Shown one piece after another: positions 152 to 64,000 of a stretch of 64,000 bases of DNA. The stretch spans positions 78,953-142,952 of the forward strand of contig WREW01000002.1 of the NCBI GenBank assembly GCA_009779135.1, written 5' to 3'. The translations under genes and the position numbers were made by a program. The stretch is from Alphaproteobacteria bacterium. Its GTDB lineage: Bacteria > Pseudomonadota > Alphaproteobacteria > UBA9219. The first letter of the stretch is position 1; each line of letters starts with the position of its first letter. Below the pieces are notes generated by a model, which made no database searches, was not told where the DNA came from, and was given only the letters and a program-made list of their open reading frames with translations.

Positions 152-1111
152 TTAGGTAAACAGGCTTGAAACCGAACGTTCCTGACTGATGCGCGCAATG
201 GCCTCGGCCAAAAGCGGCGCGATCGTCAGTTTTCTGATTTTTTCACATGAGGCCACAGCCTCAGTCGCCGCGATGGTGTCCGTGCATGTGACGGACGTCA
301 GCGCCGAGCTTTCAATCCGCTCCACCGCCTTGCCTGAAAACACGCCATGCGTGCAATAAGCGGCGACCGAAGCCGCTCCATCATCCATCATCGCCCGCGC
401 GGCATTGCATAAAGTGCCTGCGCTATCGACCATGTCGTCAATGATAAGACAATGGCGGCCTTTGATGTCGCCGATGATGTTCATGACTTCGCTGTCACCG
501 GCGCGGGCGCGGCGCTTGTCGATAATGGCCAGATCCGCGTCAATGCGCCGCGCAAGATGGCGCGCGCGCACCACACCACCGACATCAGGCGAAACCACTG
601 TAATATCCTCCGGCATTTTGCCGTGCACCGACAGTCTTTCGCGCAGATCATTAACCAAAACGGGCGCGGCAAAAAGATTGTCCACCGGAATATCGAAAAA
701 GCCCTGAATCTGCATGGCGTGCAGATCCATTGTCAAAACGCGATCCGCACCGGCCACTGTAATCAGATTGGCCACAAGCTTGGCCGTGATGGGCGAGCGC
801 GGCGCTGATTTGCGATCCTGCCGCGCATAGCCGTAATAGGGGATAACAGCCGTGATCCGGCGCGCCGAGCTTCGCTTGAGCGTGTCGATCGTAACCAAAA
901 GCTCCACCAAAGTATCATTGGTGGGAAAGGATGTGGGCTGAATGACAAAAGTGTCTTCGCCACGGACATTTTCAAGAATCTCAACGCCCACTTCGCCATC
1001 CGCAAAACGCCTTATATTGGTCTGCGCCAAGCGAAGACCAAGATATTCGGCAATAGCATCAGCTAAAGGCGGGTTGCTGGTTCCCGCGATCAGTTTTATA
1101 TTTGAACTCAT
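152..1111 (-). CDS. prs: ribose-phosphate pyrophosphokinase
   Basis: 319 aa; PRPP synthetase motifs ([16 protein letters not shown], divalent-cation and ribose-5-P binding loops); full length. Confidence 0.9.
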
Positions 1112-2139: not shown

Positions 2140-2421
2140 ATGGCAAACCATAAATCCGCTGCCAAACGCGCCCGTCAAAGCGTCAAGCGCAACAAGCTTA
2201 ATCGCGCGCACCGCTCCACGGCACATACATCGGCGAGGAAAGTCGAAAAAGCTCTGGCTATTAAGGATCTGACATCTGCCAAGGAAACGCTGCAACAGGC
2301 TGAATCTGTTCTTGCGCGCGCGGCAAGTCGCGGCACACTTCACCGTAAAACAGCGGCGCGCAAAACTTCGCGTCTTGCAAAGGCTGTAAAAAAGCTTGCT
2401 TTGGAGCAAAAAGCTTCTTAA
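2140..2421 (+). CDS. rpsT: 30S ribosomal protein S20
   Basis: 93 aa, MANHKSAAKRARQS... typical S20 N-terminus; conserved rpsT-dnaA synteny. Confidence 0.9.
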   Translation: MANHKSAAKRARQSVKRNKLNRAHRSTAHTSARKVEKALAIKDLTSAKETLQQAESVLARAASRGTLHRKTAARKTSRLAKAVKKLALEQKAS

Positions 2422-2442
2422 AATCAGTTTTACTTTATTTTA

Positions 2443-2480
2443 AAACGCGCGATCGGTGTTTCATCCGACTGCGCGTTTTT
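2443..2480 (+). terminator. putative rho-independent terminator of rpsT
   Basis: imperfect GC hairpin (acgcgcgatcgg...ccgactgcgcgt) followed by TTTTT. Confidence 0.4.
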
Positions 2481-2658
2481 GCATCTCTAAAGTGTGTAAC
2501 ATTTTCGGTTCAGAGATAAATAAAAAGTGCAAGCGAATCTTTTTTCATGTTCTTGCTTCAACCCCATTGAAAAACGAATCAGTTTTGGTCTATAGATGTG
2601 AGCACAGCACAAGGCTGATGTTTTTTCCGAACATTGCGCACTCTATGCGAGGACTCTT

Positions 2659-15491: not shown

Positions 15492-15495
15492 GGGG

Positions 15496-18305: not shown

Positions 18306-18327
18306 ATGACACAGAGAAGGGAATCTT

Positions 18328-18840: not shown

Positions 18841-18863
18841 AACATGGCGTTTTTCCCCTTTAT

Positions 18864-18966
18864 GTCATCCTCGGGCAACCGCAAAGCGGTTGAACCGGGG
18901 ATCTGACGTTAGCACCTAGCTTCAGATCCCCGGGCTCTTGCTTCGCAAGCCCCGAGGATGACAAGA
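18864..18966. repeat. family-2 palindromic miniature repeat (gtcatcctcgg ... ccgaggatgac), copy a
   Basis: ~100 bp imperfect palindrome; further copies at 38405 and 39394, plus a fragment at 55156. Confidence 0.7.
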
Positions 18967-18972
18967 GGAAGC

Positions 18973-21967: not shown

Positions 21968-21977
21968 GATTCTGATG

Positions 21978-22124
21978 CTGCCGAGATTGCCGCGTCAGTC
22001 CGCCTGCGGCGGCTTTCCTGCCAATGACAGTTTTTTCTTGTCATTGCGAGGAAGGCCGTAAGGCCTGACGCGGCAATCTCTGTATTGATGTTGCGGGAAT
22101 TACTTCGTTCCTCACAATGACAAG
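21978..22124. repeat. family-1 repeat, rearranged/composite copy 3
   Basis: partial inverted half (gagattgccgcgtcag ... ccaatgacag) followed by a full gtcattgcgagg...cctcacaatgacaag unit. Confidence 0.65.
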
Positions 22125-22244
22125 AGAGGAGGGCGAGTTATTGCGGCGCGGGATGGGTTATATATTGAAACTATTAATATGGTTAATCTTATTGACATGT
22201 TCGGGCAAAAAGGCAAAATGGGCGGGGAAAGGGGGATTCCTTAG

Positions 22245-22559
22245 ATGTCAAAAGTAACGTTATCAGCAAAAGAATACAAAGAAGCTTGCTTTCACATAGT
22301 TGCTATCTCTGCGTATGTGACAATATTAAAACATGGATTTGGTGTGCAGGTACCGGAAGCCCTCAATTCTGTCGCTGTTTGGGGCGGGGCTGTTGCTCTG
22401 GGCGCAGGAATTATTGCGGAAATTATACACCAAAATCAGCGCAAAAAGGAAGAGGCCACACCGAAACCGCCCAGACTAACTTTTAAGCAACTAGCTTATG
22501 ATGAGGAACGAAAGAATAGAGGGCTTCCCCCCATTCAGCGTTCTAACAGAAGCCCGTAA
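22245..22559 (+). CDS. small membrane protein (paralog of 63455..63739)
   Basis: 104 aa, 2 TM; ~70-bp upstream region identical to that of 63455..63739. Confidence 0.5.
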   Translation: MSKVTLSAKEYKEACFHIVAISAYVTILKHGFGVQVPEALNSVAVWGGAVALGAGIIAEIIHQNQRKKEEATPKPPRLTFKQLAYDEERKNRGLPPIQRSNRSP

Positions 22560-22560
22560 A

Positions 22561-23247
22561 TCATCCGTTTTTAGGCGTTTTGGGTTTGTCTTTTTTGCTC
22601 TGATCTTTTTCTCGTTTTGGCGTTGATGATGTTTCTTCTTTCAAATTGCTTGCGCTTAGTTCTTGCCATACCGTTTTCAAAGTCTTTTTCCATGGGTCAC
22701 GAAAATTATAAGCCGTACATGTTGCAAAGGTACCCCCAGCCGCAATAAAAGGAAGTTCCTTATTTGCAGGGAACATCTTCACACATAAGCTAAAAACCGC
22801 TGTAGCAGGAAGCATGCAGTAATGCCAGAGTTTGAAAAGAGAAAACTTTTTCTTTTTCTCTTCTTGCTCAAGCTTTTCTATGTCTTGTGTCAACATATTT
22901 CCTAAAGTTTGAAAACCAACTGTCAGGGCTTTAAGGCTTACTTTATGTTCTGGAAGCTTTCTATATAAAACAGAATAATGCCAAGCAGGATTCTTCAAAA
23001 GCCGATTCCAATTTTTATATAGTTGAAAGTTGCGTTGTATTTCTCTGAAAGAGTCATCACGAAGTGTTTTTGCTTCATCGGCTGTATGGGTTTTTTGAAG
23101 AAAATTGTGAATCTCTTCTTTTGCCTTCCACAGGGAATGCTCTTTCTTCTTCAGCACAAGGGGGATTGCTTTATCATGAAGCCGCATAAGCTTTTTATGA
23201 TAAGCAAGACGCTGTTTGAAATGGCGAAAGGGTAAGGTGGTATTCAT
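22561..23247 (-). CDS. hypothetical basic membrane protein (paralog of the partial ORF at 63785..64000)
   Basis: 228 aa; AT-rich; Lys-rich; C-terminal TM segment; tail ...KTPKNG. Confidence 0.5.
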   Translation of the reverse strand: MNTTLPFRHFKQRLAYHKKLMRLHDKAIPLVLKKKEHSLWKAKEEIHNFLQKTHTADEAKTLRDDSFREIQRNFQLYKNWNRLLKNPAWHYSVLYRKLPEHKVSLKALTVGFQTLGNMLTQDIEKLEQEEKKKKFSLFKLWHYCMLPATAVFSLCVKMFPANKELPFIAAGGTFATCTAYNFRDPWKKTLKTVWQELSASNLKEETSSTPKREKDQSKKDKPKTPKNG

Positions 23248-23343
23248 GGGCTTATTGTACTCCCTTAATGTAAATATTTGATTACTTACAATGGTTTCAT
23301 GCTTAAATGTTGTTGTATTTCACTGGGTTAGGTTGGGCCTGGC

Positions 23344-24912
23344 CTAGATATGCACGCCCATGGGGGGGGCGGGTTCTTGCCAGTTTAGCCAGTTTTGGCG
23401 GCCTTTTTGAAAAATCAAAACGCCTGTCAGGCCGAGGGCTTTGAGCATGTCGGTTGTGACCGCTTGAAGTTCCTGAACCAGATCATCGGGAAGGGGGTTT
23501 TCGCTGCGCAGGACGAGATCTAGTTTTTTTGTTTGTGAGAGGCCGTCGAGTTGTAGCGCGCCCAGATGTGACAGGTTCATGGTGACGACAAAACGTGTTC
23601 TTACGATTTTTCCTTTTTCATTGTCGTGGTGGCTGTCTTGTCTTACGCATAGTTCCAAAAGCTCGTAATGGCCTTCGTGCCAGAGGGGGACGGGGTAGGC
23701 CTGCCATTCGCCTACGCGCCCGTCAAATCGCGTGACGCCGCGCAGGCTTTCAAAAGAGTCTATCAAAGTTTTACGAATCTGCATCTGGCCGCTTTCCTGA
23801 AGCTGGCGCATCACGGGCGGGCCGAGCCAGTCATCCAGATTGCCGCCTTTAAGCGCCGCAAGCAGAAAAAGAAGCGTACCCGCAAGACGGGCTTGCGGCG
23901 CGGGAATGTGCGTTTGCGTGAAAGTCGATGTTGCCGGCGCCAGCGTTTGCGTTAACTGCTCCAGCGTTTCCAAAAGCGGGTGTCTTTGGCGCGGCTGCGC
24001 GGTCGGAAACAAGGTGGGTTGTAAAACAGGTTCTTCATCAGGCACAAAACTGCCGACAATTTTTGTGCCGACAGGCAGGTTGCTGTCGGTTTTGGCGACA
24101 AAGAACTTTCCGTCCGATTTAATCAAAGGCTGCTGATCGGGACTGCGCGCTACAATCATGGCGCGGACATGCGTGGAGCTTGTCACGCGCGGCCAGTCTT
24201 CCTGAGGTTTGAGAATCTTGATGATGTGAAACCGCATGGGCGGTTCTTGCACCGGCAAAGGTGGTTTCTCAGCTTGTTTGGCTGGGGCGGCTGTAAGTTT
24301 GTTGTCAAACAACTCGATCTTAACGCTCTGGCCTTCGCGTAAAATGCTTGGTTCGGATGAAGGGAGCGGCGTGGCGGGCGCAGGCGCGGAAGGCATGGGC
24401 GCTTGCGTTTGTGTTTGCGCCTGCGGCGAAAGTGAGATCCATGCTGAATCCGAAGCCTCCCAAGCGGAGGTCGGTGTGTTGATTGTGGTCGGGAAAGGCT
24501 GCGGCAACGGCTTTGCGTCCGGCTGCACGGCTTTGTCAGGGGCGGGGATAAACAAGATTGATTTTTGCGGCGCGTGTCCTTCCTGAATAAGAACCTCGAT
24601 AAGGGGGCCTGTGTTTTTTTGGGTTGTAAAAAGAGTCTCCAAGGCCTGCAAGGCTTCTTCCTGCGCCTGCACCGCCACAAACTTGAGCGTGCCGAGCGCC
24701 GTGCGCATCAAAAGCATATCGCGGGAAAGAAGATCAATCAGACGACCGCTTACCGACAAAGAGCGCGACAATGTCACAAGATTGTCAGGCGCGTCTATCA
24801 GCAAAGCGGGGATCGTATAAGGGGCGGACGCGCGGGAAGGGGATGATATTTGTATTGTGCGCTGCACGTCTCTTAAAATATCGGGCTGCCCTGTGGTTGC
24901 GCTGTCTTTCAT
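23344..24912 (-). CDS. proline/glutamine-rich flagellar protein, FliK-like (hook-length control)
   Basis: last gene of the flagellar class II cluster; P/Q/T-rich central region; C-terminal region resembles the Flg_hook domain (LSHLGALQLDGL...LDLVLRSENP...LQELQ). Confidence 0.4.
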   Translation of the reverse strand: MKDSATTGQPDILRDVQRTIQISSPSRASAPYTIPALLIDAPDNLVTLSRSLSVSGRLIDLLSRDMLLMRTALGTLKFVAVQAQEEALQALETLFTTQKNTGPLIEVLIQEGHAPQKSILFIPAPDKAVQPDAKPLPQPFPTTINTPTSAWEASDSAWISLSPQAQTQTQAPMPSAPAPATPLPSSEPSILREGQSVKIELFDNKLTAAPAKQAEKPPLPVQEPPMRFHIIKILKPQEDWPRVTSSTHVRAMIVARSPDQQPLIKSDGKFFVAKTDSNLPVGTKIVGSFVPDEEPVLQPTLFPTAQPRQRHPLLETLEQLTQTLAPATSTFTQTHIPAPQARLAGTLLFLLAALKGGNLDDWLGPPVMRQLQESGQMQIRKTLIDSFESLRGVTRFDGRVGEWQAYPVPLWHEGHYELLELCVRQDSHHDNEKGKIVRTRFVVTMNLSHLGALQLDGLSQTKKLDLVLRSENPLPDDLVQELQAVTTDMLKALGLTGVLIFQKGRQNWLNWQEPAPPMGVHI

Positions 24913-24919
24913 CGTCAGA

Positions 24920-25690
24920 TTATTCCAAAAAGGTCTGCGCCATTTGCGTGATGTCAAGGGACGCCTGCGCACTGGGAAAACGTGTTAAAAGCGAGGTTTG
25001 CGCGCGGATTGTTTCGCGTACATAGCGGTCTCTGTGGATAATGCCGCCCAGTTTCGGCGTGTAACCGAGAAAGGTTTCGCAGACTTTTTTCAAAGTCTCG
25101 TAAGTTTTGGAGCCTTCCATCAGAGACGTTGCCATATTCACCACAATGCGTAAATCCGCTTTGGGATTGCCGGCCAGCATCAGTTTGATAAAAGCATAAG
25201 AGTCCGTTAGCGCCGTCGGTTCATCCGTCACAACGACAAAGGTTGCTTTGGCCGCACCGGCCATCTGGCGCGTGGCTTTTTCAACGCCTGCGCCGAGATC
25301 GACAAACACATAATCATAACGCGGCGCGATCCCAAGCAGGCTGCTGCGCATATTCACAAGCTTGTCCGTCGGAAGACTCGCAAGATTACCCGAGCCTGAG
25401 CGTCCGGCGACAATGTCAAAAGCGCCTTTGGCGTAGGGGACAATGATTTCCTCAATTTTAAGATTGCCTTCTGTAAAATGCGCAAGATCTTTTTCAGGCG
25501 TCAGCCCAAGTTGAATATCCACATTGGCAAGACCGAAATCGCCGTCAAACAGAAGAACTCTTTTACCAAGCTGCGCCAGAGCATGGCAAAAGGTGATCGA
25601 AAACCACGTTTTTCCAACGCCGCCTTTGCCCGAAGCCACAGCGTAGAGGTTCTGGCTCTGCAAAGCGGGGGGGGCAACGGGATCGATCAT
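24920..25690 (-). CDS. fleN: flagellar number regulator, MinD-like ATPase FleN/FlhG
   Basis: deviant Walker A AVASGKGGVGKTW; ParA/MinD fold; located after flhF. Confidence 0.8.
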   Translation of the reverse strand: MIDPVAPPALQSQNLYAVASGKGGVGKTWFSITFCHALAQLGKRVLLFDGDFGLANVDIQLGLTPEKDLAHFTEGNLKIEEIIVPYAKGAFDIVAGRSGSGNLASLPTDKLVNMRSSLLGIAPRYDYVFVDLGAGVEKATRQMAGAAKATFVVVTDEPTALTDSYAFIKLMLAGNPKADLRIVVNMATSLMEGSKTYETLKKVCETFLGYTPKLGGIIHRDRYVRETIRAQTSLLTRFPSAQASLDITQMAQTFLE

Positions 25691-34217: not shown

Positions 34218-35138
34218 TTAGCGCGGCTGGAAATCATGGGCTATCGCGATAGCCAGCGCCCGAACATGCCTCTTGGCCACTTTTAGCATATCCGGTTTCG
34301 ACAAGGTTTTGGTGGTCGCTTTCTCCCACGGATTTTCAAGTCCGGGGTCTTGCGCAATCAAGCCTTGTTTAAGCATTTTAGACCGGACGGCAAGCGTAGC
34401 AAAATCTCGCTTGCTCCCCTTTTTTGCGGCGTTCGGGCCGTATCTAAAAATATAACGCGCTTTGCCGGGGCACATGCGGTCGCTGCTCATGTCCGCGCAG
34501 GTGTCCTTTATGTAGAGAAGGGCAAAGAAGGAGTCCAGAAACTCGTGCTTTTTGACGATCTCGTACATTCTTTTGTAAGGCGCTTTTTCAGTATTAAGGG
34601 GCCTACCGGCTTTATCAGCCACCGCGCGTTCTTTTTTAAGCTGCTTGGATATGGCTTTCATCTCCGCAAGCGTCCGCGCGTCTATAAGATTAGAATTACC
34701 CTTGGCCAGATGCTTTTCCAGATCATCAACGTAATTTTCAAAATAATGGTTTATAGTCACTTTTGTCGCCTGAGATACAGTTCCTTGTTTCTTGTCCGTG
34801 CCAAGTTTTGACTCTGTCCATAATTGCGGCAGAAGCATATCATAATCCCTTTTCCGCAACCGCATCGTGTTTTCATCATTTCCCGGGTGTAAAAGTTCTA
34901 TGGCTGTGGTCAGGTCGCGGATGGTTTTCTGCGCACGCGGATCTTTAAGGATATCGCCCATCCAGCCGATTTCTTTTTGTAGAGATCTTTCGATTTTTTT
35001 ATGATCCGCGTCCGAAACCAAAGCTTGGGCGGGTTGGGGGAGCATGGTGCAGAGGGTCAGAGCCGCAGCAGTAAAAAGAGTGCGCGCGTTTGATACGCGG
35101 CAAATGCAGACGGCAGCTTTTTTCCAATCAAAAATCAT
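34218..35138 (-). CDS. hypothetical secreted protein
   Basis: 306 aa; N-terminal signal peptide; no recognised domain. Confidence 0.45.
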   Translation of the reverse strand: MIFDWKKAAVCICRVSNARTLFTAAALTLCTMLPQPAQALVSDADHKKIERSLQKEIGWMGDILKDPRAQKTIRDLTTAIELLHPGNDENTMRLRKRDYDMLLPQLWTESKLGTDKKQGTVSQATKVTINHYFENYVDDLEKHLAKGNSNLIDARTLAEMKAISKQLKKERAVADKAGRPLNTEKAPYKRMYEIVKKHEFLDSFFALLYIKDTCADMSSDRMCPGKARYIFRYGPNAAKKGSKRDFATLAVRSKMLKQGLIAQDPGLENPWEKATTKTLSKPDMLKVAKRHVRALAIAIAHDFQPR

Positions 35139-36796: not shown

Positions 36797-38395
36797 ATGA
36801 TCGATGATCTCGTCCGCGAGCTGTTTGCCGGAGATTCCAAGTATTTAGAGCTGGAAAGCTTGTATGTGAAATATCTTGATTCCAGCGACTCAGGCAGTAA
36901 AGAACATGACTCTCTGATTGAAAGCATGATCGTTGAGCATCTTAAAGTTGGGGTACCTCCCTCTGAAATCTTCGGAAAGCTTATGACGATTTTGTTTCAC
37001 AAAGCGCTCACGACATCGCGCTTTCAAAAGAAGAATATGGAGCCGCAGTTAAGCGCCATCGTAAAACCCTTTTTGACCGATTTCCCGAGGCTGGAACATC
37101 TCTATGCTTTACGTCACAGCACCAACATCACGCTCAGATTCAACAGTGGTGAGTCGCTGTACAGGGTGATCTCCGACAAGAATTATGCGTCTTCTGAGTT
37201 CAGGAGTCTGCGCATTCTGGCAAACACGGCCAAGGAAATCAATGATACGACTGAACCTCTGATCGCGTTGTTCCTGTCTTCGAAAGACATTAAAAACCGA
37301 GGCAATGCCATGGCCTCAGCCGTGCATGAGCTGGATGCTTCGGTGAAGGAAATTACCAACAATATTGAAGGCGTCAACCACAACACCGATCAGGCAGTTG
37401 CCAGTATGGAAAAGGGGATTCAGGCTTCAAACCGCGCGATCTCGGCGATCACCAAGATCTCTGAAACAACACAGGATGTGTCGGGCCGTATTGAAAGCCT
37501 GTCCAAGGCGTCCGAGAAAATCGGTGAGATTTTGCAGACGATCGACGGCATTTCCAAACAGACCAATCTTCTTGCCCTTAACGCCACGATCGAGGCGGCG
37601 CGGGCGGGCGAAGCCGGTAAAGGCTTTGTGGTGGTGGCCAATGAAGTCAAGCTGCTGGCGGGGCAGACCTCCAAGGCGACTGATGATATCAAGCAGCGGG
37701 TGACCAATCTTAAAGAGGAAATGTCCAGCATCACAGCCGCGATTGCCGGCAGCAGCGAGGCGGTTGTGGAAGGCGAGACCGTTATCAAGGAATCCTCGGC
37801 GCAGATGAGCAGCGTGTCCACCCAGATTGAAAACATCCACACCAAGATGCAGGAAGCCTTGACCGTGCTGACCCAGCAAAGTCAGGCGACCTCCGAGATA
37901 TCAACATCCATTACCAGCATTTCGGAAAGCTTGACTCATAATGACACTCTGGTTTCCGATATTGTTAAGGCCATCAACACCGCAAACGAGGACATCGTCA
38001 AGAGCACCGGTTCAATCACCAACCGCAAGACTCCTGAGTTCATGGGCGAGCTTACCCGTCTTGACCATATGCTGTTTAGAAAACGGGTCACCGACACCCT
38101 TATGGGCTTCGCTGACAATCATGACCATGATCTTCCGGATCACCATAGCTGTCGTCTCGGACAATGGTATGACGGCGTGACCGACACCGACCTTAAAAAC
38201 GCGGATGCATTCAAGAGTCTGTATTCGCCGCATGAAAAGGTTCATACGCTGGCTAAAGAGGCCTTGCGTCTGCATCAAAGCAAGCAAAGCACAGATACCG
38301 TCCTGCAGAAACTTCATGAACTGACGGTCGAATACAACAAGGTTCTCACGGACTTGTCGCGCATGTCGGATTACCTTATCGCAAAGGATAAATAA
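36797..38395 (+). CDS. cytoplasmic methyl-accepting chemotaxis protein with C-terminal CZB (zinc-binding) domain
   Basis: no TM; MCP signalling domain ([31 protein letters not shown]); C-terminal H-x3-C-x-GQW ... H motif of chemoreceptor zinc-binding domains. Confidence 0.8.
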
Positions 38396-38528: not shown

Positions 38529-39233
38529 TTAAGACTTGCGTCCGGCAAAGATCTTTTTATAGGTCAGAGCGCCAAGGACAGCGCCGAGGATGGGCGCTAC
38601 CCAAAACATCCAGAGCTGCTGGAAGTAGGCTTCTGTTTCAAAAAGAGTGACAAGGGCGACTGCCGTTGAGCGGGCCGGATTCACAGACGTGTTGGTCACC
38701 GGAATGGAAATCAGGTGAATCAAGGTCAGTGCCAGACCAATCGCAATCGGCGCAAAGCCGGGTACAGCGCGGGCTGACGTTGCGCCGAGAATTACGATCA
38801 GGAAGAACCCCGTCAAAATCGTTTCCGTGAGAAACGCGGCGAGCATGGAATAATTCCCGGGCGACAAATCACCATAGCCGTTTGAAGCAAAACCGCCGAA
38901 AGTGGAGAAATCGGCCCGACCGCTTACGATCGCCGCCAAGACACATGCCGCCACAGCGCCGCCGATCACCTGCGTGATGACGTAGGGGCCAACATCTTTC
39001 CAGTCAAAACGGCCTGCTGTTGCCAATCCTATAGAGACAGCCGGATTGAAATGCCCGCCGGAAATGGCGCCGACAGCATAAGCCATCGTCAACACGGTCA
39101 GACCAAAAGCAAGGGCCACACCGACAAACCCGATCCCCAGATCAGGAAAGCCGGCTGCGATAAGGGCGCTTCCGCACCCGCCAAAGACAAGGACAAACGT
39201 CCCCAAGAACTCAGCCGCCAGCTTGGTTCTCAT
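38529..39233 (-). CDS. aqpZ: aquaporin Z
   Basis: MIP family; two NPA/NPARS motifs; 6 TM. Confidence 0.85.
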
Positions 39234-39329
39234 GGTTAACTCTTTGTTTTTCATGGTTAACTCTCCTTATGTGAGAAAAAGATAGATTCGCTTCAGGATT
39301 ATCATAAGGAAAAATAGGGGGGCTGGGAA

Positions 39330-48292: not shown

Positions 48293-50992
48293 ATGTCCAC
48301 ACAAACAAAATGGGTTTATTCGTTCGGAGACGGCCATGCTGAAGGGCGCGCGGATATGCGCAATCTGCTGGGCGGCAAAGGGGCCGGTCTTGCGGAAATG
48401 TGTATGCTGGGGCTGCCTGTTCCCTCGGGCTTTACTATCACAACGGACGTCTGCACCTATTTCTACGCGCATGACCGCCTTTATCCCGAAAGCTTGAAGG
48501 GTGAAGTAAATAACGCTCTTGCGGAGGTGGAAAAAGCGGTCGGCTGCGGCTTTGGCGATCCGGCCAATCCTTTGCTGCTTTCGGTGCGCTCCGGCGCGCG
48601 GGCGTCCATGCCCGGGATGATGGATACCATCCTTAATCTCGGCCTGAATAACGCGACCGTGGAAGGTCTTGCCAAAATCAGTCAGGATGCGCGTTTTGCT
48701 TATGACAGCTATCGCCGCTTTATTCAAATGTACAGCGCGGTGGTGCTTGATATTTCTCTGCACAAGTTCGAAGACATTATCGAAGACGTCAAGCGCGCGC
48801 GCGGGTTTGCGCTTGATACCGAGATGACGGCTCATGACTGGCGCGAGGTTGTCACGGCCTATCTTCAGATCGTGCAAAAAGAACGCGGCAAAGCCTTCCC
48901 GCAGGATGTTCATGAGCAGCTCTGGGGCGCCATCGGCGCGGTGTTTGGTTCTTGGATGAACCAGCGCGCGATTACTTACCGCCGCTTGAATGATATTCCT
49001 GCGGACTGGGGCACGGCTGTTAATGTTCAGGCGATGGTGTTCGGCAATAAGGGCGAGGATTGCTGCACGGGCGTTGCCTTTACGCGCAACCCTTCCACGG
49101 GTGAGAACTCTTTTTACGGCGAATATCTTGTCAATGCTCAAGGTGAAGATGTTGTTGCCGGTATTCGCACGCCCCAGCATCTGACGATCAAGGGCAAAGA
49201 GGAAAATGACTCGGATCTTCTGGCCATGGAAGAGGTGATGCCGGATGTCTTTAAACAGCTTAATGATGTGCGCTTGAAACTGGAGTCACATTACCGCGAC
49301 ATGCAGGATATTGAGTTCACCGTCCAGCACGGCAAGCTTTATATGCTGCAAACCCGCACCGGAAAACGCACGGCGATGGCGGCTTTGCGGATTGCGGTTG
49401 AAATGGTGAAAGAAGGCACAATCGGCAAGGAAGAGGCTATTAAGCGTATCGAGCCTTCTTCATTGGATCAGCTTTTGCACCCGACACTTGATCCCAAAGC
49501 TGAGCGGCAGGTGATTGCCAAGGGTCTGCCTGCTTCCCCGGGCGCGGCTTCAGGCATTGTTGTCTTTACGGCTGACGAGGCCGAGGATATGGCGGGCAAA
49601 GGCAGAAAAGTTATTCTCTGCCGCGTTGAAACAAGCCCCGAAGATATTCACGGCATGCATGCCGCGCAGGGTATCGTGACAAGTCGCGGCGGTATGACAA
49701 GTCATGCTGCTGTTGTGGCGCGCGGCATGGGGCGCGCCTGTGTCGCGGGCGCGGGCGAGCTTTCCATGGACTATGCCAAGGGCGAGATGCGCGTGAAGGA
49801 CATCATTGTTAAAGCGGGCGAGGCCATCACGATTGACGGCGCGACGGGCGAGATCATGCTGGGCGAAGTTCCTTCGGTACAGCCCGAGCTTTCCGGCGAT
49901 TTTGCGACTTTGATGCAGTGGGCCGACAGCGTGCGCACATTGAAAGTCCGCACCAATGCCGAAACGCCTTTGGATGCGCGCACAGCCGTCAAGTTCGGCG
50001 CCGAGGGCATCGGCCTTTGCCGCACGGAACACATGTTTTTTGATACAAGTCGCATCATTGCGATGCGCGAGATGATTTTGGCGGAAAACACGCAAGGGCG
50101 GCGCAAGGCTTTGGACAAGCTTTTGCCGATGCAACAAAAGGATTTTGAGGATCTCTTCACCATTATGGACGGGCTTCCTGTGACGATCCGCCTTCTGGAC
50201 CCGCCTTTGCATGAGTTCCTGCCCAAAACAAAAGCGGAAATCGAAGATGTCGCCAAATATGCCGGTGTCGATGTGGCGCAGGTTGAACGGCGCGCGGCGA
50301 TGCTGCATGAAACCAATCCCATGCTGGGGCATCGCGGATGTAGGCTCGGCATTTCTTATCCCGAGATTTCCGAGATGCAGGCGCACGCTATTTTCGGTGC
50401 CGTGATTGCCATGAAGAAACAGGGGAAAACTGTGCTTCCTGAAGTGATGATTCCTCTTGTCGCGCTGAAAAAGGAATTGGATATTCTGGCAAAAGTCGTC
50501 CACGATGCGGCGGATGCAATGATGAAGGAGTCCGGCATAAAGTTTGACTATATGGTCGGCACGATGATCGAGCTGCCGCGCGCGGCGCTGCGCGCCGGCG
50601 GGATTGCGCAGACGGCGGAGTTCTTCAGCTTCGGCACAAATGATCTGACTCAAACGACTTTCGGTTTAAGCCGCGATGACAGCGCGTCTTTCCTTCCTGA
50701 TTATTATAGAACGGGGATTATGGCGCTGGATCCGTTTGTCACCATCGACCAAGACGGCGTGGGCGAGCTTATCAAAATCGCCTCCGAACGGGGCCGCGCG
50801 ACACGCGAGGATCTCAAGCTCGGCATATGCGGCGAGCATGGCGGCGATCCGGCCTCTATCCGCTTTTGCCACAAGCTTGGTTTGAATTATGTGTCATGCT
50901 CGCCTTACCGCGTTCCTATTGCGCGTCTGGCGGCAGCGCAGGCCGCGATCGAAAATGACCGCGACGTTCAGGCGCGGCTTAACGCGGCGTAA
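48293..50992 (+). CDS. ppdK: pyruvate, phosphate dikinase
   Basis: KWVYSFGDG N-terminus; phosphohistidine domain (GGMTSHAAVVARGMG); PEP-utilising C-terminal domain. Confidence 0.9.
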   Translation: MSTQTKWVYSFGDGHAEGRADMRNLLGGKGAGLAEMCMLGLPVPSGFTITTDVCTYFYAHDRLYPESLKGEVNNALAEVEKAVGCGFGDPANPLLLSVRSGARASMPGMMDTILNLGLNNATVEGLAKISQDARFAYDSYRRFIQMYSAVVLDISLHKFEDIIEDVKRARGFALDTEMTAHDWREVVTAYLQIVQKERGKAFPQDVHEQLWGAIGAVFGSWMNQRAITYRRLNDIPADWGTAVNVQAMVFGNKGEDCCTGVAFTRNPSTGENSFYGEYLVNAQGEDVVAGIRTPQHLTIKGKEENDSDLLAMEEVMPDVFKQLNDVRLKLESHYRDMQDIEFTVQHGKLYMLQTRTGKRTAMAALRIAVEMVKEGTIGKEEAIKRIEPSSLDQLLHPTLDPKAERQVIAKGLPASPGAASGIVVFTADEAEDMAGKGRKVILCRVETSPEDIHGMHAAQGIVTSRGGMTSHAAVVARGMGRACVAGAGELSMDYAKGEMRVKDIIVKAGEAITIDGATGEIMLGEVPSVQPELSGDFATLMQWADSVRTLKVRTNAETPLDARTAVKFGAEGIGLCRTEHMFFDTSRIIAMREMILAENTQGRRKALDKLLPMQQKDFEDLFTIMDGLPVTIRLLDPPLHEFLPKTKAEIEDVAKYAGVDVAQVERRAAMLHETNPMLGHRGCRLGISYPEISEMQAHAIFGAVIAMKKQGKTVLPEVMIPLVALKKELDILAKVVHDAADAMMKESGIKFDYMVGTMIELPRAALRAGGIAQTAEFFSFGTNDLTQTTFGLSRDDSASFLPDYYRTGIMALDPFVTIDQDGVGELIKIASERGRATREDLKLGICGEHGGDPASIRFCHKLGLNYVSCSPYRVPIARLAAAQAAIENDRDVQARLNAA

Positions 50993-51985
50993 AGGCGGTT
51001 CGATAAAAATCGGGGTCTTTTATTCTTGTCTTGATTTGCTCTGGCGTCAGGCTATGTTTAAGTGCTATGGCGGTGGCCAAGCGACGGCAATCTTGATCTG
51101 AAAGGTTATTTAGGCCGCCTTTTTGAAGTTTTTTCAATATCGCTATCCCGTTGAAGATAGGGTTGTCGGCATGGATGATGGTGTTTACGTCATCGTAATT
51201 TTCCTGAAGCTTATAAAGCGTTCGCGCAACATGGGGCCAATTTTGACGTTTAATATGGGATAGAAGACTATTTGCCTCTTTCATGCTTTCATAAGTGTCG
51301 TGTTCGACAATGAATCTGCGGGGTACGCCATCATTCAGATCCGTTAAGAACGCAAGGACGTCTTCTACCAGCCTATCCGTGTTTTTGCCTAACTTCGCCA
51401 CTTTAATCATGGCATAAACATCGGCTATGTTTTCATTGAGATGTTTGCCGGCTTTTTCATTTTGATCTGTGTAGAAAAACTCATGAAACAACATATGGGG
51501 GGAGGTAGAATCGAGCAAGACAATAACATTGCTTTGATCAGCGGAAGCGTTGGGCATTTTCAATATAAGCGGGGTTTTAAAAATGCGGATAGGAAACTCG
51601 TTTCCGATTGAAGCTTGAAAAGCGCTTAAGCCCATGGACTTTGCTAGAAGTATCATGGACGCAAGTGTAGAAATCTTGTTGCGTGACATGGAAAGTTGTG
51701 CATCTTCCAAAATCCCACAAAGAAGAAAATGCTGGTCACCTGAAAGATTTGGCATTTTGCTGCCGTCAATAATGATGATCTTTTGTCTAGACGCTTTTCT
51801 ATCTCGGGTATATTCCGAAAGACTTCATTGACAGCCTTGTGCCAGTCGGATGTCGGGTTTTTCTCAGGGGACAGCGTGACATCATGAAAAGGCAGCCCCC
51901 TTCCCATAAGCGAAGGCAACCCAAATGTTACCGCCGCAGCCGCAATAACCGACCAATTTATTATCTTTTTAACGGAAGCTTTCAT
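50979..51985 (-). pseudogene. family-X paralog A, frameshifted and motif-degenerate
   Basis: signal-peptide exon (51985..~51770) and body (51755..50979) lie in different frames; 1-nt loss inside an A5 run; the HExxH equivalent is HEFFY. Confidence 0.6.
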
Positions 51986-52066
51986 GCCCGCATTGTACTT
52001 TTTTCTGCGAAGATTTCATTAGTTTTAATAGTTTCATTGTGAGTATGGTTATTTTTCCCTCTCTCT
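51986..52066 (-). promoter_or_regulatory. conserved family-X promoter module (copy for paralog A)
   Basis: GAAAAATAACCATA...GAAACTATTAAAA(C/G)TAATGAAA...; -10-like TACAAT. Confidence 0.5.
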
Positions 52067-53515: not shown

Positions 53516-55063
53516 CTATTGCGGTGTGAGTTTGGGGGTGGGAGCCGTGACTGTGCTCCTGCCGGCGGGTCTTTGCGGTTCGTCAAAGCTCGCCACCTTC
53601 AAAGGCTCCGCCGCCACGCCCAAAGGCTCCGCCGCTTTTTTTGCCGGTTCAAAAGCGGTGTTGTTGTCTTTATCCGCTACAGCGGCTTCTTGCGCTTCTT
53701 TTTTTATGCTTTCATGGGCAAGTATGGCCGGTTTAAATGCGGTGTTATTGTCTTTATCCACCACAGCGTCTCCTTGTTTAAGAAGGTCGTACGTGTCACT
53801 CCATGCTTTGGTGGCGGCCTTTCCTTGCGGCACCTTTCCCAAGGTTGCGTTGTCAAAATCGTTCATATCAGACAAAGACGGGCTATGCTTTGTTGCCAAA
53901 GCTGACGCAAGAGAAAGGCTGTCTTTGTCTGTAAGAGCATTCAGTCCACCTGTTTCTAACTTGGCAAAAATAGCTTGTCCATTGAAGGGATGTTTAACCT
54001 CGGATCGTGATTCCGTGTTGTCATAAGTTTCTTGAAGACCATCAAGCTTTGACTTAACATTATCCATTTTCCCGTTCTTAATATCGTCCAGAAGAGAGAT
54101 TGTCGCAAACAGAGTTTCATGGGTGTTATGCCCTTGGTACGACATCGGGAGTTCTTGACTCGTTGAGAGGTAAGTTGAGTCAAAAAGACGGGCTTGCGCT
54201 TGTTTAGTGGCAGCTGTGTAATTTCCTTTTTGCGCCATTTTAATCGCGGCGTAAGAATCTGACATATTTTCCTGGCGATTTTCCCGCAGCTTCCAAGCTT
54301 CACCTTTATTATCTGTTTTAGGGACTTTCATGAAAAACGCGGGTTCCTCTACTTCAGTATTGTAAAGATGCGCTTTTTCGTGAAATGCTGTAAAAGCGGC
54401 CGCTTCATCATATGGCTGTTTTACAAAATTAGAATCTGTTTTTGAAAAATCAACGCCTGTACCTTCGGGACAAGACAACCTCTCACGCCAAACAGTATTT
54501 CCGTCTTTGTTATTTTCACCGAACGCGACAAAAACTTTTATGTTGTTACCATCTCTGTCTTTTGTTGAAATAACACCAGAGTTGACCTGATCGAAAGAAG
54601 GGTCACATACTGGTTCGTATCCTATATCCTGTCTTAAATGTCTTCCTATACTAGCCGCGAGTATGGCACTCTCTCCCTTTTCCGCAGAAACGCCTGAATC
54701 CTCCAGAATGCCCTTTACGGCAGAGTCGTCGTTTTCCCTTTCACTTAAAATCTTTAAAATCTCATCTACGTCATGTTTTCCTGATTCCCCTTTGCCATGC
54801 GCCAGCGCGGCAGATCTTTTTTTCACTTCTCGCCCATCAATAAAATAAATCTTTTGTCCTATCGCCTGTTCTATTTCTTCTTTTTGAGAAACAATTTCTT
54901 TTTTAGCCTCATCCACCAAGGATATGGGCTTTACTGCGACAGGATTGTCGGGAATCTTTGCTGCTCCGGCAGGCAGCGGTAATAAGCTACATGCCGCTAC
55001 GGCTGTAGCGGCTGTCAGGTTTACTACCCTTTTGAGCAGGGGTTTTTTATCGTCGTTTTCCAT
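53516..55063 (-). CDS. family-X secreted HExxH protein, paralog C
   Basis: signal peptide; FHEKAHL; ENMSDSYAAIKMAQ; C-terminal ...STVTAPTPKLTPQ. Confidence 0.7.
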   Translation of the reverse strand: MENDDKKPLLKRVVNLTAATAVAACSLLPLPAGAAKIPDNPVAVKPISLVDEAKKEIVSQKEEIEQAIGQKIYFIDGREVKKRSAALAHGKGESGKHDVDEILKILSERENDDSAVKGILEDSGVSAEKGESAILAASIGRHLRQDIGYEPVCDPSFDQVNSGVISTKDRDGNNIKVFVAFGENNKDGNTVWRERLSCPEGTGVDFSKTDSNFVKQPYDEAAAFTAFHEKAHLYNTEVEEPAFFMKVPKTDNKGEAWKLRENRQENMSDSYAAIKMAQKGNYTAATKQAQARLFDSTYLSTSQELPMSYQGHNTHETLFATISLLDDIKNGKMDNVKSKLDGLQETYDNTESRSEVKHPFNGQAIFAKLETGGLNALTDKDSLSLASALATKHSPSLSDMNDFDNATLGKVPQGKAATKAWSDTYDLLKQGDAVVDKDNNTAFKPAILAHESIKKEAQEAAVADKDNNTAFEPAKKAAEPLGVAAEPLKVASFDEPQRPAGRSTVTAPTPKLTPQ

Positions 55064-55150
55064 GACCTTATTATACTATTTTTTTGTGAATCTTTTATTA
55101 CTTTTAATAGTTTCGCTTTAAATATGGTTATTTTTCATTAACTTATGTGA
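55064..55150 (-). promoter_or_regulatory. conserved family-X promoter module (copy for the C-B operon)
   Basis: TTAATGAAAAATAACCATATTTAAAGCGAAACTATTAAAAGTAATAAAAGATTCAC...AGTATAATAAGGTC then ATG. Confidence 0.55.
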
Positions 55151-55311: not shown

Positions 55312-56481
<1,170 letters not shown>

Positions 56482-59486: not shown

Positions 59487-59569
59487 ATAAGTTAATGAAA
59501 AATAACCACGTTTAGAGTGAAATTATTAAAAGTAATAAAAGATTTATCAAAAAGAGGTATAATAGGGCC
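59487..59569 (+). promoter_or_regulatory. conserved family-X promoter module (copy for paralog D)
   Basis: TTAATGAAAAATAACCACGTTTAGAGTGAAATTATTAAAAGTAATAAAAGATTTATC...GGTATAATAGGGCC then GTG. Confidence 0.55.
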
Positions 59570-60859
59570 GTGAAAGACGACGTTAAAAAATCCTCGCCGC
59601 TCGTTAGATTTACGGCGGCTACGATGGCTGCGCTCACGGTTGGGCTTTTGCCTGCTGATGCAAAAGGCGGGTATGATATTATGTACTCCCCTGACCCGAA
59701 ATCTGAAGCGGGGAAAGTTGTAAAGCAGCTCGCTCCGCATATGGCTGCGGTGGAGGAAGTGACAGGACAAGAGTTTCTTCCTATTATCGACGGCAGCAAA
59801 ATCGATAACATCTTTAACCAAAAGCAAATGCCTTTCAATCTATCTAATCTCCGCGATGTTTTAGAAAACGCGGACTTCCCTACACCCTTAACGCCCAACA
59901 AAATAGGAAATATTGCATTCCATATACTTCAGGCAAAGGCGCTTGAGTATAGAGCTTTGCATGTTTCAGTCGGGAAATCGCACTTGGTTGTCTTATTTGA
60001 TCCTTCTGATCCCAAAATACTGGGTCACGAGATCGTAGGACATGGGAATCAAGAATATGCAAAGGACGGTAACTTACACTCTTCTGTTTTAAAAGTCCCT
60101 GATGTTTCGAAACCCCAGATTTCTTTAAAAGCTTTTGACAAGATCTCGGATCCTGACCAGCTTTTCCTTTTAACAAACTACCGCGAAAATATGGCGGATG
60201 TTGCCGACATGCTTACAAGGGCGCAAAGGGGCGAAGGGATAAAAGGCATGGCGGCTGAAAATCTTTTGCAATCTACGATCCTTTTTAGAAAAGTGCTTTA
60301 TAACAATCCGCAGGCTTTGGATTACCAAGTCACAGAACATAATACTTACAGAAGTCTGGCGGCGACAGAAACTTTTCTGTCCCATGTTAAAGAGAAAGAC
60401 TGGCCAAAGGTTGCGCGAGCTCTTTATACAATCCAAGAAAAATACAACGAGATGACGGCTTTGGATGTTTTGATTCCTGTTGATAATCCCATCTTCCCCG
60501 GGCGGGTGATTATGGACAAGCTCCAAGAAGAAGGCGACATAAAAAATCTTTCACCGCAAGAAACCGCTCATCTGGCTGCCGGTTTTGCGTGCATGTATAG
60601 TCTTAATCCGCAAGAGGGCAAGGATTTTAACGCCGCCGCGCTTGGCGATGAAGCACCCGTAGGAGCCGCCCGCGGCGCGTGGCTTCAGGTAGGCCGTATG
60701 CTGAACAATCCGGTATTAAAGAATGATCCTGAGATGCAGGAACTCCGGAATGATCCCGCCTATCAACAGGTCACGAGCGCGCGTGAAAGCATAGAACCGC
60801 CTGCCAGAAAACCGCGTGGCCATAAGGTTTCCTCTTCTTCCAAATATACGCCGCAATAA
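59570..60859 (+). CDS. family-X secreted HExxH-like protein, paralog D (GTG start)
   Basis: signal peptide; GHEIVGHG (HExxxH variant); ENMADVADM; C-terminal ...KYTPQ. Confidence 0.65.
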   Translation: MKDDVKKSSPLVRFTAATMAALTVGLLPADAKGGYDIMYSPDPKSEAGKVVKQLAPHMAAVEEVTGQEFLPIIDGSKIDNIFNQKQMPFNLSNLRDVLENADFPTPLTPNKIGNIAFHILQAKALEYRALHVSVGKSHLVVLFDPSDPKILGHEIVGHGNQEYAKDGNLHSSVLKVPDVSKPQISLKAFDKISDPDQLFLLTNYRENMADVADMLTRAQRGEGIKGMAAENLLQSTILFRKVLYNNPQALDYQVTEHNTYRSLAATETFLSHVKEKDWPKVARALYTIQEKYNEMTALDVLIPVDNPIFPGRVIMDKLQEEGDIKNLSPQETAHLAAGFACMYSLNPQEGKDFNAAALGDEAPVGAARGAWLQVGRMLNNPVLKNDPEMQELRNDPAYQQVTSARESIEPPARKPRGHKVSSSSKYTPQ

Positions 60860-61764: not shown

Positions 61765-61998
61765 ATGCAGGTTCGTATTTTTCGCCCCGCCGCAAGCTTG
61801 ACGCAAGGCTCGCCTTGGGCCGATGCGTGGCGGCTTGAGGTTGTCAGCGCGATCCAGAAAAGGCCCGAGCCTTTCATGGGCTGGCTTGCGGCTGAGGACG
61901 GGCAAAGCACCATGAAAGGGCGCCTTGCTTTTGATACGCAGCAAGCGGCCATAGCCTTTGCGCAAAAGCAGGGCTGGTTGTTTGAGGTTGAGGAATAA
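61765..61998 (+). CDS. ETC complex I NDUFS4-like (AQDQ-family) small protein
   Basis: 77 aa; RIFRPAASLTQGS...WRLEV...PFMGW...RLAFDTQQAAIAFAQKQGW-FEV matches the bacterial NDUFS4-homolog pattern. Confidence 0.65.
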   Translation: MQVRIFRPAASLTQGSPWADAWRLEVVSAIQKRPEPFMGWLAAEDGQSTMKGRLAFDTQQAAIAFAQKQGWLFEVEE

Positions 61999-63106: not shown

Positions 63107-63220
63107 AGCTCATTCCTTAGAATTATGGCCTTATTATACCTCATTTTCATGAATATTTCATTACTTTCAATAGTTTCTAGCCTGAATATGCTTATATTTC
63201 ATTGACTTACGATTCTTTTG
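63107..63220 (-). promoter_or_regulatory. conserved family-X promoter module (copy for paralog E)
   Basis: TCAATGAAATATAAGCATATTCAGGCTAGAAACTATTGAAAGTAATGAAATATTCATG...GGTATAATAAGGCC. Confidence 0.5.
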
Positions 63221-63342: not shown

Positions 63343-63454
63343 TTGGGTTATTTAGGTTTGGGATGGGCTATATATTGAAACTATTAATATGGTTAATCTC
63401 ATTGACATGTTTGGGGTAGAAAAGCAAAGTAGTTGGGGAAAGGAGGATTCCTTG

Positions 63455-63739
63455 ATGTCAAAATCATCAGAGATCTTAATCGATTTGTTTAAAACGGCTG
63501 CTAAAATTACGGGTACAATGGCTGTAATTATGAGCGTGCCGGCTTTATTCAATTATACGGGTGTAGAGGTGACAAAGCTTCCTTTTCCTGCTCAACTTGT
63601 TATATTTGGTGCCCATGTCGGCTTGTGTATGTGGGGAGTAAGTAATTTGCTAAAAATTGATTCAGATGTACAGCGCCGTTACAAGCAAAAGAAACCTGAA
63701 TCTTCAGGGGGGAAGTTTTCAGTATTGACTTTAAAATAA
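63455..63739 (+). CDS. small membrane protein (paralog of 22245..22559)
   Basis: ~94 aa, 2 TM; shared upstream module gggatgggytatatattgaaactattaatatggttaatctyattgacatgtt. Confidence 0.5.
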   Translation: MSKSSEILIDLFKTAAKITGTMAVIMSVPALFNYTGVEVTKLPFPAQLVIFGAHVGLCMWGVSNLLKIDSDVQRRYKQKKPESSGGKFSVLTLK

Positions 63740-63784: not shown

Positions 63785-64000
63785 TTATCCGTTTTTAAGT
63801 TTGCTGGAAACGTTTTTCTTGCCCAGCGGTTTTTCTTTTCGTTCTGAGGCTGCTGGATTTTCTTTTGGTGTAGAGAAGGGTGACAGAAAGCTGTTTTTTC
63901 TTTTTTTCTGGCTAAGCTCTTTCATCGTTTTTTTCCACAAATCTTTCAAGTGATGGCGATAAATGGTTGCGCCCATCACCGCACTGGCTGCAATAAGGAC
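63785..64000 (-). CDS. partial (runs off the window) paralog of the 22561..23247 protein
   Basis: VLIAASAVMGATIYRHHLKDLWKKTMKELS aligns with LPFIAAGGTFATCTAYNFRDPWKKTLKTVWQELS; both end in KNG. Confidence 0.5.
   Translation of the reverse strand, partial: VLIAASAVMGATIYRHHLKDLWKKTMKELSQKKRKNSFLSPFSTPKENPAASERKEKPLGKKNVSSKLKNG

Follow-up and report, generated by a model that had tools for sequence, protein, structure and literature searches.

What kind of genetic element is formed by two convergent genes whose proteins diverge rapidly while the DNA in front of them is retained, and what might the two products do together? The question is raised by a stretch of 64,000 nucleotides from an uncultured alphaproteobacterium (contig WREW01000002.1 of assembly GCA_009779135.1, positions 78,953 to 142,952), referred to here in its whole length as the window. 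It carries two such gene pairs, each composed of a gene for a small membrane protein (small1, small2) and, on the opposite strand, a gene for a larger one (big1, big2). An earlier note, made from the sequence alone, had compared them to toxin/immunity or effector/adaptor pairs. The data presented here identify an accessory two-gene module, so far found only in a few uncultured Alphaproteobacteria. Both protein families, and the obligate convergent arrangement of their genes, seem to be undescribed so far. We tentatively interpret the module as a cognate inner-membrane pair in which the big protein would provide a CorA-like pore or scaffold and the small protein would act as its modulator, the two being expressed from CtrA-type promoters and coupled through convergent transcription; we give this reading a probability of about 0.45, somewhat short of even odds.

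Three copies of the gene pair on one contig

The open reading frames (ORFs) of both loci lie where the earlier note had placed them and are convergent as it described (Table 1), with 1 nt between the stop codons of small1 and big1. The right-hand gene of locus 2, truncated by the end of the window, was recovered in full from the parent contig, a 172-kb metagenome contig (ENA ERZ27257295 k141_1655050; NCBI locus tags FWF24_02075 and FWF24_02270). An exact look-up of the small2 sequence, with either start, gave no match, and locus 2 was reached on this contig via the neighbouring P366 gene. Complete big2 encodes 239 aa (63785..64504 in coordinates extended beyond the window). Both copies are real, but they are not the only ones: a third, outside the window on the same contig, comprises big3 (L004:6001-6726, protein P0003) and, convergent with it, small3 (6731-7030), which has the same promoter and leader as small1 and small2. 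Between small3 and a methyltransferase gene there is an extra ORF of 138-148 aa, of the same strand as small3 and without family match (L004:7123-7569).

The two loci in the window are AT-rich, as had been noticed, with a GC content of 0.427 (22-23 kb) and 0.403 (63-64 kb) against ~0.52 for the window. The proteins had been described as ~35-40% identical, a range into which neither pair falls: big1 and big2 share 49% identity (E = 4e-70) and small1 and small2 ~26% in a forced alignment (BLASTP E = 16). The latter two are alike in topology, each having two hydrophobic helices in corresponding positions and a tail that is basic, but not in sequence.

Distribution and conservation of the pairing

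The big family has seven true members among ~15 billion database proteins. A word-indexed search of 5.8 billion proteins returned big1 and big2 only; 1.84 billion cluster representatives, searched exhaustively with an HMMER profile, yielded four further true members, and a second profile search, of the word-indexed 5.8 billion, one more (P0008). Four other samples contributed P0004, P0005, P0006 and P0008. When 185,579 species-representative genomes and the metagenome contigs of the Joint Genome Institute (JGI) were scanned with an alignment of the distant trio, no further big-family members were found, and the DNA pattern of the small-gene promoter was absent from the scan of species-representative genomes. 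LepA encoded in the window, in comparison, has hundreds of relatives at 82-90% identity. Since the big family is so rare while relatives of LepA are numerous, the module is rare and accessory, in a lineage that is itself well sampled. Two relatives were compared for an empty site after lepA: one contig ends at lepA and another has unrelated synteny. Contigs of the relatives are large and carry chemotaxis genes, giving no indication of an obligately host-associated lifestyle.

Pairing is conserved throughout the family. At all seven loci, from five samples, a convergent ORF for a small membrane protein with one or two transmembrane (TM) helices is found at the 3′ end of the big gene. The stop codons are separated by 1, 45, 4 and 9 nt at four loci, and the genes overlap by 9, 8 and 9 nt at the other three. 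A lack of such conservation in other genomes is one of the two findings by which the earlier note would have been refuted, and it was not observed.

Coding status

The closest independent loci, L007 and L009 (dS ~0.8), provide the one comparison with unsaturated dS and give a ratio of nonsynonymous to synonymous substitution rates (dN/dS) of 0.16 for the big and 0.35 for the small gene. Paralogs within the metagenome-assembled genome (MAG) are near synonymous saturation (dS 0.77-1.93, dN/dS 0.4-0.9), and the proteins of the distant loci are 17-25% identical. Both genes are real and under purifying selection. One might argue from the lack of database annotations, and from the random-level nucleotide identity of the small coding sequences of the MAG, that the ORFs are in decay or not genuine and that only non-coding DNA is conserved. 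This is hardly credible given the dN/dS values, the conserved topology, the frames which are intact at 7/7 loci and the confident helical model obtained from just six sequences.

Architecture of the two proteins

The AlphaFold model of big1, built on a six-member alignment, is all-helical, with a predicted local distance difference test score (pLDDT) of 75 and a predicted template modelling score (pTM) of 0.50. Helices are modelled at residues 7-51, 56-85, 93-158 (continuing into TM1) and 164-202 (TM2 together with a basic amphipathic segment). They form a basic cytoplasmic three-helix bundle (7-135) with a stalk (93-158), and are followed by a disordered Lys-rich tail (200-228). Hydropathy peaks at residues 136-160 and 163-185. 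The single C-terminal TM helix proposed earlier is thus replaced by a two-helix hydrophobic hairpin (~residues 136-185), with a five-residue loop, FPANK, and a basic W-K segment after TM2. Across the family the loop reads FPAN, IPEN, DPEN, FPEN or FPKQ and is of the (F)PEN type. Its proline, P160, is invariant, as are D122, E127, K139, R183 and W186, also located in the stalk and hairpin.

The small1 protein has a short N-terminus, two hydrophobic helices at ~14-35 and 39-65 and a basic, Pro-rich C-terminal tail; the tail of the small proteins is considered disordered. The small partners at the distant loci have one TM helix (N-out, C-in) and a basic Pro-rich tail, and correspond to TM2 plus the tail of the MAG versions. 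The positive-inside rule predicts a cytoplasmic location for the N- and C-termini of the big protein, and likewise for the small protein's tail.

Neither protein had a significant match in Pfam, NCBIfam, PADLOC or PHROGs. The big protein had no Pfam match at E ≤ 1 and matches no curated family, nor thus a housekeeping family, the second finding by which the earlier note would have been refuted. A PDB sequence-profile search with the big family was also without significant result and included no CorA match. T4-lysozyme matches in the PDB profile searches (E 0.17-0.9) proved to be one insignificant match repeated over mutant entries and were discarded.

In the model, the big protein weakly resembles the 2-TM cation channels of the CorA/Mrs2/ZntB/CmaX group (MIT superfamily) in having two C-terminal TM helices after a long stalk helix. 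In contrast to CorA, in which TM1 ends with a GMN (or GxN) signature, its loop is FPEN, PANK or PKQE; three helices precede the TM region in place of the N-terminal alpha/beta domain; the protein is shorter (~230-275 aa compared to ~315-350 aa); and it has a dedicated small partner gene, which CorA does not. The structural scores are no better than those of generic helical bundles. Without GMN, alpha/beta domain or sequence similarity, the big protein is not a member of the CorA family. Like CorA, whose channels are pentameric funnels that conduct cations, it may nevertheless act as a pore built of several subunits, with its funnel in the cytoplasm.

Comparison with toxin-antidote and holin systems

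Strict adjacency of the partners, a trait of toxin-antitoxin and toxin-immunity systems, is observed at 7/7 loci. The pair could encode a membrane-damaging toxin and its antidote, or be holin/antiholin-like, one partner permeabilising the inner membrane and its cognate neutralising it, with antisense control and with the three copies acting as specific cognate pairs, a possibility that we consider unlikely. Type I toxin-antitoxin loci with convergent, 3′-overlapping transcripts include txpA/RatA and bsrG/SR4 of Bacillus subtilis. As in the cassette, a small hydrophobic membrane protein is there set against a convergent, 3′-overlapping unit, and the loci are multi-copy and lineage-restricted. 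The type I antitoxin is, however, a non-coding antisense RNA, whereas the opposing gene of the cassette encodes a protein of 228-276 aa with a dN/dS of 0.16. Both partners are conserved proteins, and the small ones, at 74-104 aa with long tails, exceed the typical length of type I toxins. Class II holins have two TM helices and a charged C-terminus and are encoded beside an endolysin in a phage or lysis cassette. The small proteins of the MAG are of this build (~100 aa, two TM helices, highly charged C-terminal tail), whereas the partners at distant loci have a single TM helix. No endolysin, spanin, phage or mobile-element genes are adjacent to the cassette, and PADLOC, PHROGs, Pfam and NCBIfam returned no match. 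Moreover, the promoters described below resemble those of cell-cycle and motility genes and not stress-responsive ones. For the toxin/immunity or effector/adaptor role put forward in the earlier note, nothing specific was found; both genes are under purifying selection, and being convergent they are not transcribed together.

Promoters of the small and big genes

Upstream of small1 is an inverted repeat composed of GAAACTAT (22167-22174) and ATGGTTAA (22179-22186), the latter being the reverse complement of TTAACCAT. It is followed by a -35 hexamer TTGACA (22192-22197), a -10 hexamer CAAAAT (22214-22219) and a Shine-Dalgarno sequence (~22229-22236); the TTGACA noticed earlier thus belongs to TTGACA-N16-CAAAAT at 22192-22219. 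The small2 promoter has TTGACA, CAAAGT and the Shine-Dalgarno sequence AAGGAGGA. For the small genes of the MAG the consensus is an inverted repeat GAAAC(T/C)AT-TAAT(T)-ATGGTTAAT, then TTGACA-N16/17-CAAA(A/G)T and ~30 nt of leader in which the Shine-Dalgarno sequence is strong.

The big1 promoter is of a different type. Its -10 hexamer TACAAT (23254-23259) is just 6 nt before the ATG, from which we infer that the big-gene mRNA is leaderless. The element GTAA-N7-TTTA (23271-23285) spans -38 to -24 relative to the predicted start site, and the box GAAACCAT (23291-23298), whose form in big genes is GAAA(C/T)CAT, is at -51. This module of ~85 nt aligns without gaps to the promoters of four genes (nhmmer E 1e-16 to 1e-19) of the P-family, a paralogous ORFan HExxH family unrelated to the big proteins, three of whose members have signal-peptide-like N-termini. 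Pfam, NCBIfam, PADLOC, PHROGs and a PDB sequence-profile search gave nothing significant for the P-family. The module core, TGAAACTATTAA, is present five times in the window (0.17 expected), each time upstream of a big or P-family gene, and an nhmmer search for more copies over ~100 kb of DNA retrieved the six training copies only. An additional distal sequence is shared by the promoters of big2, P366 and P429.

Individual members of the set have departed from this pattern. At big3, whose promoter is situated 75 nt after a DUF2336 gene, the conserved module is gone. In the P366 promoter (63107-63206) the ancestral leaderless start codon is ATA and the start is now 23 nt downstream, behind an AAGGA Shine-Dalgarno-like sequence, which looks like a leaderless-to-leadered conversion. 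A further P-family copy is split into two frames (51653..51985 and 50979..51755), indicating a frameshift, pseudogene or assembly error.

Readings of these promoters as extracytoplasmic function (ECF), sigma-28 or sigma-54 promoters were considered by eye and dropped, since a sigma-70 -10 hexamer, accompanied by TTGACA or not, fits the sequences. CcrM (GANTC) methylation as a control acting on the small-gene leader was also rejected: GATTC occurs in small1 and small2 and not in small3.

Regulatory DNA is conserved better than the proteins

The upstream similarity between locus 1 and locus 2 goes far beyond chance, with a shared 31-mer that occurs exactly twice in the window (0.00 expected). 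It is also longer than the ~70 bp first estimated: the repeat (family D12) covers 22137-22253 and 63347-63463 and takes in the first three codons as well as the Shine-Dalgarno sequence. Over the first 110 nt upstream of small1, small2 and small3, identity is 80-84% in all three pairs, while the next 110 nt upstream, used as a control, are 51-58% identical, the background of the alignment method. The big1 and big2 promoters are 87% identical over 90 nt. In a sliding comparison of the two loci, identity is 75-90% in the small-gene leader and promoter and 37-45% in the small coding sequence, reaching 90-95% in the first ~25 big codons and 82-100% in the big-gene promoter. The regulatory DNA is thus conserved above the level of synonymous sites and better than the proteins. 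This supports the earlier view of a linked pair whose coding sequences diverge fast while a promoter is kept, and extends it to the big-gene promoters.

An RNA element as the cause of leader conservation was ruled out. Folding of the small-gene leader gave no stable structure (z ~0), and Rfam identified in the whole window RNase P RNA and one tRNA only, neither of them in the small-gene leader.

CtrA-type boxes

CtrA is a regulator of the cell cycle and of motility. Recognised CtrA motifs have the form TTAA-N7-TTAA, activating sites lying over the -35 region and ending 23-24 nt before the start site (PMC6180460). The 5′ base of activating sites is near -39, a degenerate TTAC-N7-TTCA at -39 is listed as a CtrA motif, and direct targets include ccrM, flagellar genes and ctrA itself (PMC4287350). 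The ungapped variant TTAACCAT, also a recognised CtrA motif, is exact in the promoters of small1, small2 and small3. At L006 and L009 the small-gene promoters have a perfect TTAA-N7-TTAA 6 nt upstream of a -35-like TTGATG, and these two loci agree in the half-sites but not in the 7-nt spacers. Big-gene promoters have TTAA-N7-TAAAC (L006, L007), CTAA-N7-TAAAC (L009) or GTAA-N7-GAAAC (L008). TAAAC(C/T)AT is exactly 39 nt upstream of the extended -10 hexamer in L006, L007 and L009, and 38 nt upstream in big1 and big2. In the leaderless-type promoters GTAA-N7-TT(C/T)A, which agrees with the motif at 6/8 specified bases, extends from -38 to -24 of the predicted start sites, the reported activating position of CtrA (PMC6180460, PMC4287350).

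The same words accompany other genes of the window. TTAACCAT occurs seven times (1.3 expected), two of these occurrences being in the small-gene promoters and one upstream of a methyl-accepting chemotaxis protein (MCP) gene (36797..38395). The MCP promoter (36726-36775) carries a 12-mer, AATATGGTTAAT, identical to that of the small-gene promoters, followed by TTAA-N7-TTAG and a second ATGGTTAC. The window's sole TTAA-N7-TTAA (TTAACTTACGGTTAA, 56477-56491) is in the 39-nt gap upstream of a CcrM-type methyltransferase gene (55312..56448, N6_N4_Mtase+RAMA), a position that fits the known control of ccrM by CtrA. GTAA-N7-TTHA is found 12 times (3.8 expected), including the big1 and P-family promoters and, as GTAA-AACCGAT-TTAA (35155-35169), a site that directly precedes the flagellar cluster, whose first gene (34218..35138) has no Pfam match and whose order is fliF-fliG-(248 aa)-flbD-like-flhA-flhF-fleN.

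Other occurrences are recorded here as observations. The RNase P RNA gene on the minus strand (9013-9395) is preceded, 32-46 nt before its 5′ end, by GTAA-N7-TTAA (GTAATATATAGTTAA, 9427-9441). Downstream of the cassette at L009, an inverted pair of CtrA-variant words, ATGGTTAA-N9-TTAACCAT (L009:2110-2145), is immediately upstream of the next gene (2142..2621, no Pfam match) and overlaps its start. TTAACC-ATG contexts are located at 1110-1117 (prs, 152..1111) and at 39232-39239 and 39253-39260 (aquaporin MIP gene, 38529..39254); GAGTTAACCATG occurs twice at the aquaporin gene, in tandem and 21 nt apart.

Both TTAA-N7-TTAA and TTAACCAT are shared with the CtrA-dependent promoters of Caulobacter and of the Rhodobacter sphaeroides fla2 system, and the cassette words recur at motility, chemotaxis and ccrM genes of the window; a degenerate element of the cassette resembling a full site spans -38 to -24, where CtrA sites that activate are located (PMC6180460, PMC4287350). 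From the motifs and from the flagellar and chemotaxis neighbours described below we infer control by CtrA or by a regulator of the same specificity.

Several observations weigh against this interpretation. The assignment to CtrA is one of motif resemblance, using relaxed patterns partly derived after seeing the data, and motif enrichment at single loci is modest. Three of the seven TTAACCAT matches in the window are mere TTAACC-ATG start-codon contexts and are to be discounted. In the MAG, the half-sites of the small-gene boxes are spaced by N5 or N6 and not N7, and the big-gene box is without its left half-site, the relaxed full pattern having zero matches in the window. The full sites of the distant loci are at ~-42 to -62, upstream of the classical -35 position, and all transcription start sites are predicted positions. 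Finally, the big1 and big2 promoters and the first ~100 nt of their coding sequences are 90-100% identical, synonymous sites included. Among codons for the same amino acid, 27/29 are identical within codons 1-35 compared to 37/52 further in; since synonymous sites in codons 1-35 are unusually conserved, local gene conversion could explain part of the similarity of this block.

This last observation leads to an alternative in which no common regulator is involved: the promoters would be alike because a segment bearing them was recently duplicated or converted among the paralogous loci, and AT-rich DNA would have produced the CtrA-like words by chance. It is strengthened by the extent of the big1/big2 identity block across promoter and coding sequence, by the extra distal sequence common to the big2, P366 and P429 promoters, by the local rearrangement that the 134-nt direct repeats around P366 indicate and by per-locus motif statistics that are modest and derived after seeing the data. 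However, the mismatches among the small-gene promoters (80-84% identical) are scattered and the adjoining coding sequences have only random-level identity. The architecture recurs in four other samples with box positions kept and spacers changed, between proteins 17-25% identical. The same words are found at the non-paralogous MCP, ccrM and flagellar promoters, and the excess of the TGAAACTATTAA core is always upstream of genes. We therefore regard duplication or conversion without a shared regulator as quite improbable.

Promoter sharing with the HExxH family bears on a further alternative, that the proteins are secreted effectors which insert into host membranes like the chlamydial Inc proteins and are co-regulated with the secreted HExxH family in a virulence or symbiosis regulon. 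Both MAG partners have a bilobed hydrophobic hairpin, both families are ORFan, fast-evolving and AT-rich, the big promoter is common to the HExxH family with its three members having signal-peptide-like N-termini, and the window contains a Sel1-repeat gene array. The Inc proteins have a similar bilobed hairpin that leaves its two ends on the same membrane side and share the fast divergence and ORFan status; the cassette, in contrast, is found without evidence for type III secretion or host association, in a lineage that looks free-living and motile. Such a role is very improbable. The Sel1 array itself (10800-18840) consists of several adjacent ORFs of 108-nt (36-aa) repeats in more than 20 copies, and the called genes match Pfam Sel1 (PF08238).

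A model for the pair

In the reading that we favour, a CorA-like inner-membrane pore or scaffold with a small modulator, the resemblance of the big protein to the pore half of CorA-type channels suggests that it would oligomerise into a membrane pore or channel-like assembly. Its hairpin would expose a short periplasmic loop with the conserved Pro-Glu-Asn motif, and its Lys-rich tail would be cytoplasmic. The small protein would be a membrane partner that modulates or antagonises it. The separate promoters, each with CtrA-type boxes, suggest that the pair would be switched with the cell-cycle and motility programme, alongside the P-family ORFans that use the same module. Given convergent genes with abutting or overlapping ends, the transcripts probably overlap in antisense, which would couple expression of the two genes reciprocally. 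At locus 1 the big1 and small1 mRNAs would overlap at their 3′ ends if the terminator-like hairpin listed in Table 1 is used; evidence for this hairpin is weak, such sites being as many in the window as in shuffled sequence in the consensus scan. The anatomy of the cassette, its conserved pairing, the purifying selection, the conservation of promoters beyond that of synonymous sites and the presence and position of CtrA-like motifs are established by the data. CtrA binding, leaderless transcription of the big gene, pore oligomers, physical interaction of small and big proteins and antisense coupling are all elements that the model proposes on the basis of sequence and structure prediction.

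A more elaborate version would make the cassette a chromosomal switch, in which a CtrA-timed leaderless mRNA for a mini CorA-like pore opposes the mRNA of a small membrane antagonist with the same operator words. Expression of the two would be mutually exclusive, the pore would open or close at a given stage of the cell cycle or of motility, and the shared module would define a hitherto unrecognised accessory branch of the CtrA regulon that includes the secreted HExxH proteins. We consider this a distinctly long shot.

Features of the window and neighbouring sequences

Table 1. Coordinates of the cassette genes, their promoters and the promoters carrying the same module in the window
Feature	Position	Strand	Remarks
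small1 coding sequence	22245..22559	+	104 aa; ORF
big1 coding sequence	22561..23247	-	228 aa; NCBI: hypothetical protein FWF24_02075
small1 promoter and 5′ leader	22137..22244	+	inverted repeat, -35, -10, Shine-Dalgarno
big1 promoter, leaderless-type module	23248..23330	-	homologous to four P-family promoters
Terminator-like hairpin for big1 transcript (putative)	22514..22536	-	within the 3′ end of small1; consensus scan
small2 coding sequence	63455..63739	+	94 aa; two hydrophobic helices, basic tail
big2 coding sequence, 3′ part	63785..64000	-	5′ remainder and promoter beyond the window
small2 promoter and leader	63347..63454	+	box GAAACTAT / ATGGTTAA (63389-63396)
P366 promoter, same module	63124..63206	-	gene P366 62006..63106; putative co-regulated set
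P429 promoter, same module	59491..59574	+	gene P429 59570..60859
P515 promoter, same module	55060..55142	-	gene P515 53516..55063
Frameshifted P-family gene promoter, same module	51981..52062	-	gene 50979..51985

Locus 1 adjoins the flagellar genes for FlhA, FlhF, FleN, an FlbD-like protein, FliG and FliF, and the distant locus L009 adjoins cheZ. Next to big1, at the distal end of the flagellar cluster, 23344-24972 encodes a Pro-/Gln-/Thr-rich protein of 522-542 aa without Pfam match, whose position and composition suggest a FliK-like hook-length protein.

Repeat or duplication junctions do adjoin both loci, as the earlier note had pointed out. Repetitive extragenic palindromic (REP)-like palindromes (TGTCATTGCGAGG...GCGGCAATCTC), which are intergenic and often head-to-head, occur at 4127-4244, 6320-6440, 21973-22108, 46457-46574, 52063-52183 and 55194-55305, and one pair is immediately upstream of the small1 promoter (21973-22108). 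A second palindromic repeat family (TGTCATCCTCGGGGCTTGCGAAGCAAG...GGGGATCTGA) is present at 18857-18973, 38398-38520, 39386-39439 and 55149-55195. Near locus 2, direct repeats of 134 nt (family D9, 76% identical; 61877-62010 and 63219-63352) flank P366 and its promoter. The repeat corresponds to the 3′ part of an NDUFS4-like gene (61765..61998) with downstream sequence, and looks like the footprint of an insertion or duplication by which P366 came to lie between small2 and the NDUFS4-like gene.

Implications

The regulatory words and the broad membrane architecture of the cassette resemble known kinds. With promoters 80-87% identical, synonymous sites near saturation and one partner diverged beyond the reach of BLAST, the cassette is a clear case of regulatory DNA outlasting the proteins that it serves, and one promoter module is common to unrelated ORFan genes. 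Two genes and two promoters within ~1.1 kb make it a compact system for the study of convergent-transcription coupling and of minimal CorA-like architectures. Should the pair instead be a toxin and its antidote, it would represent a new membrane-acting family. If the reading proposed here is true, the well-studied CtrA regulon would gain, in this undescribed family of protein pairs, an accessory membrane module that evolves fast.

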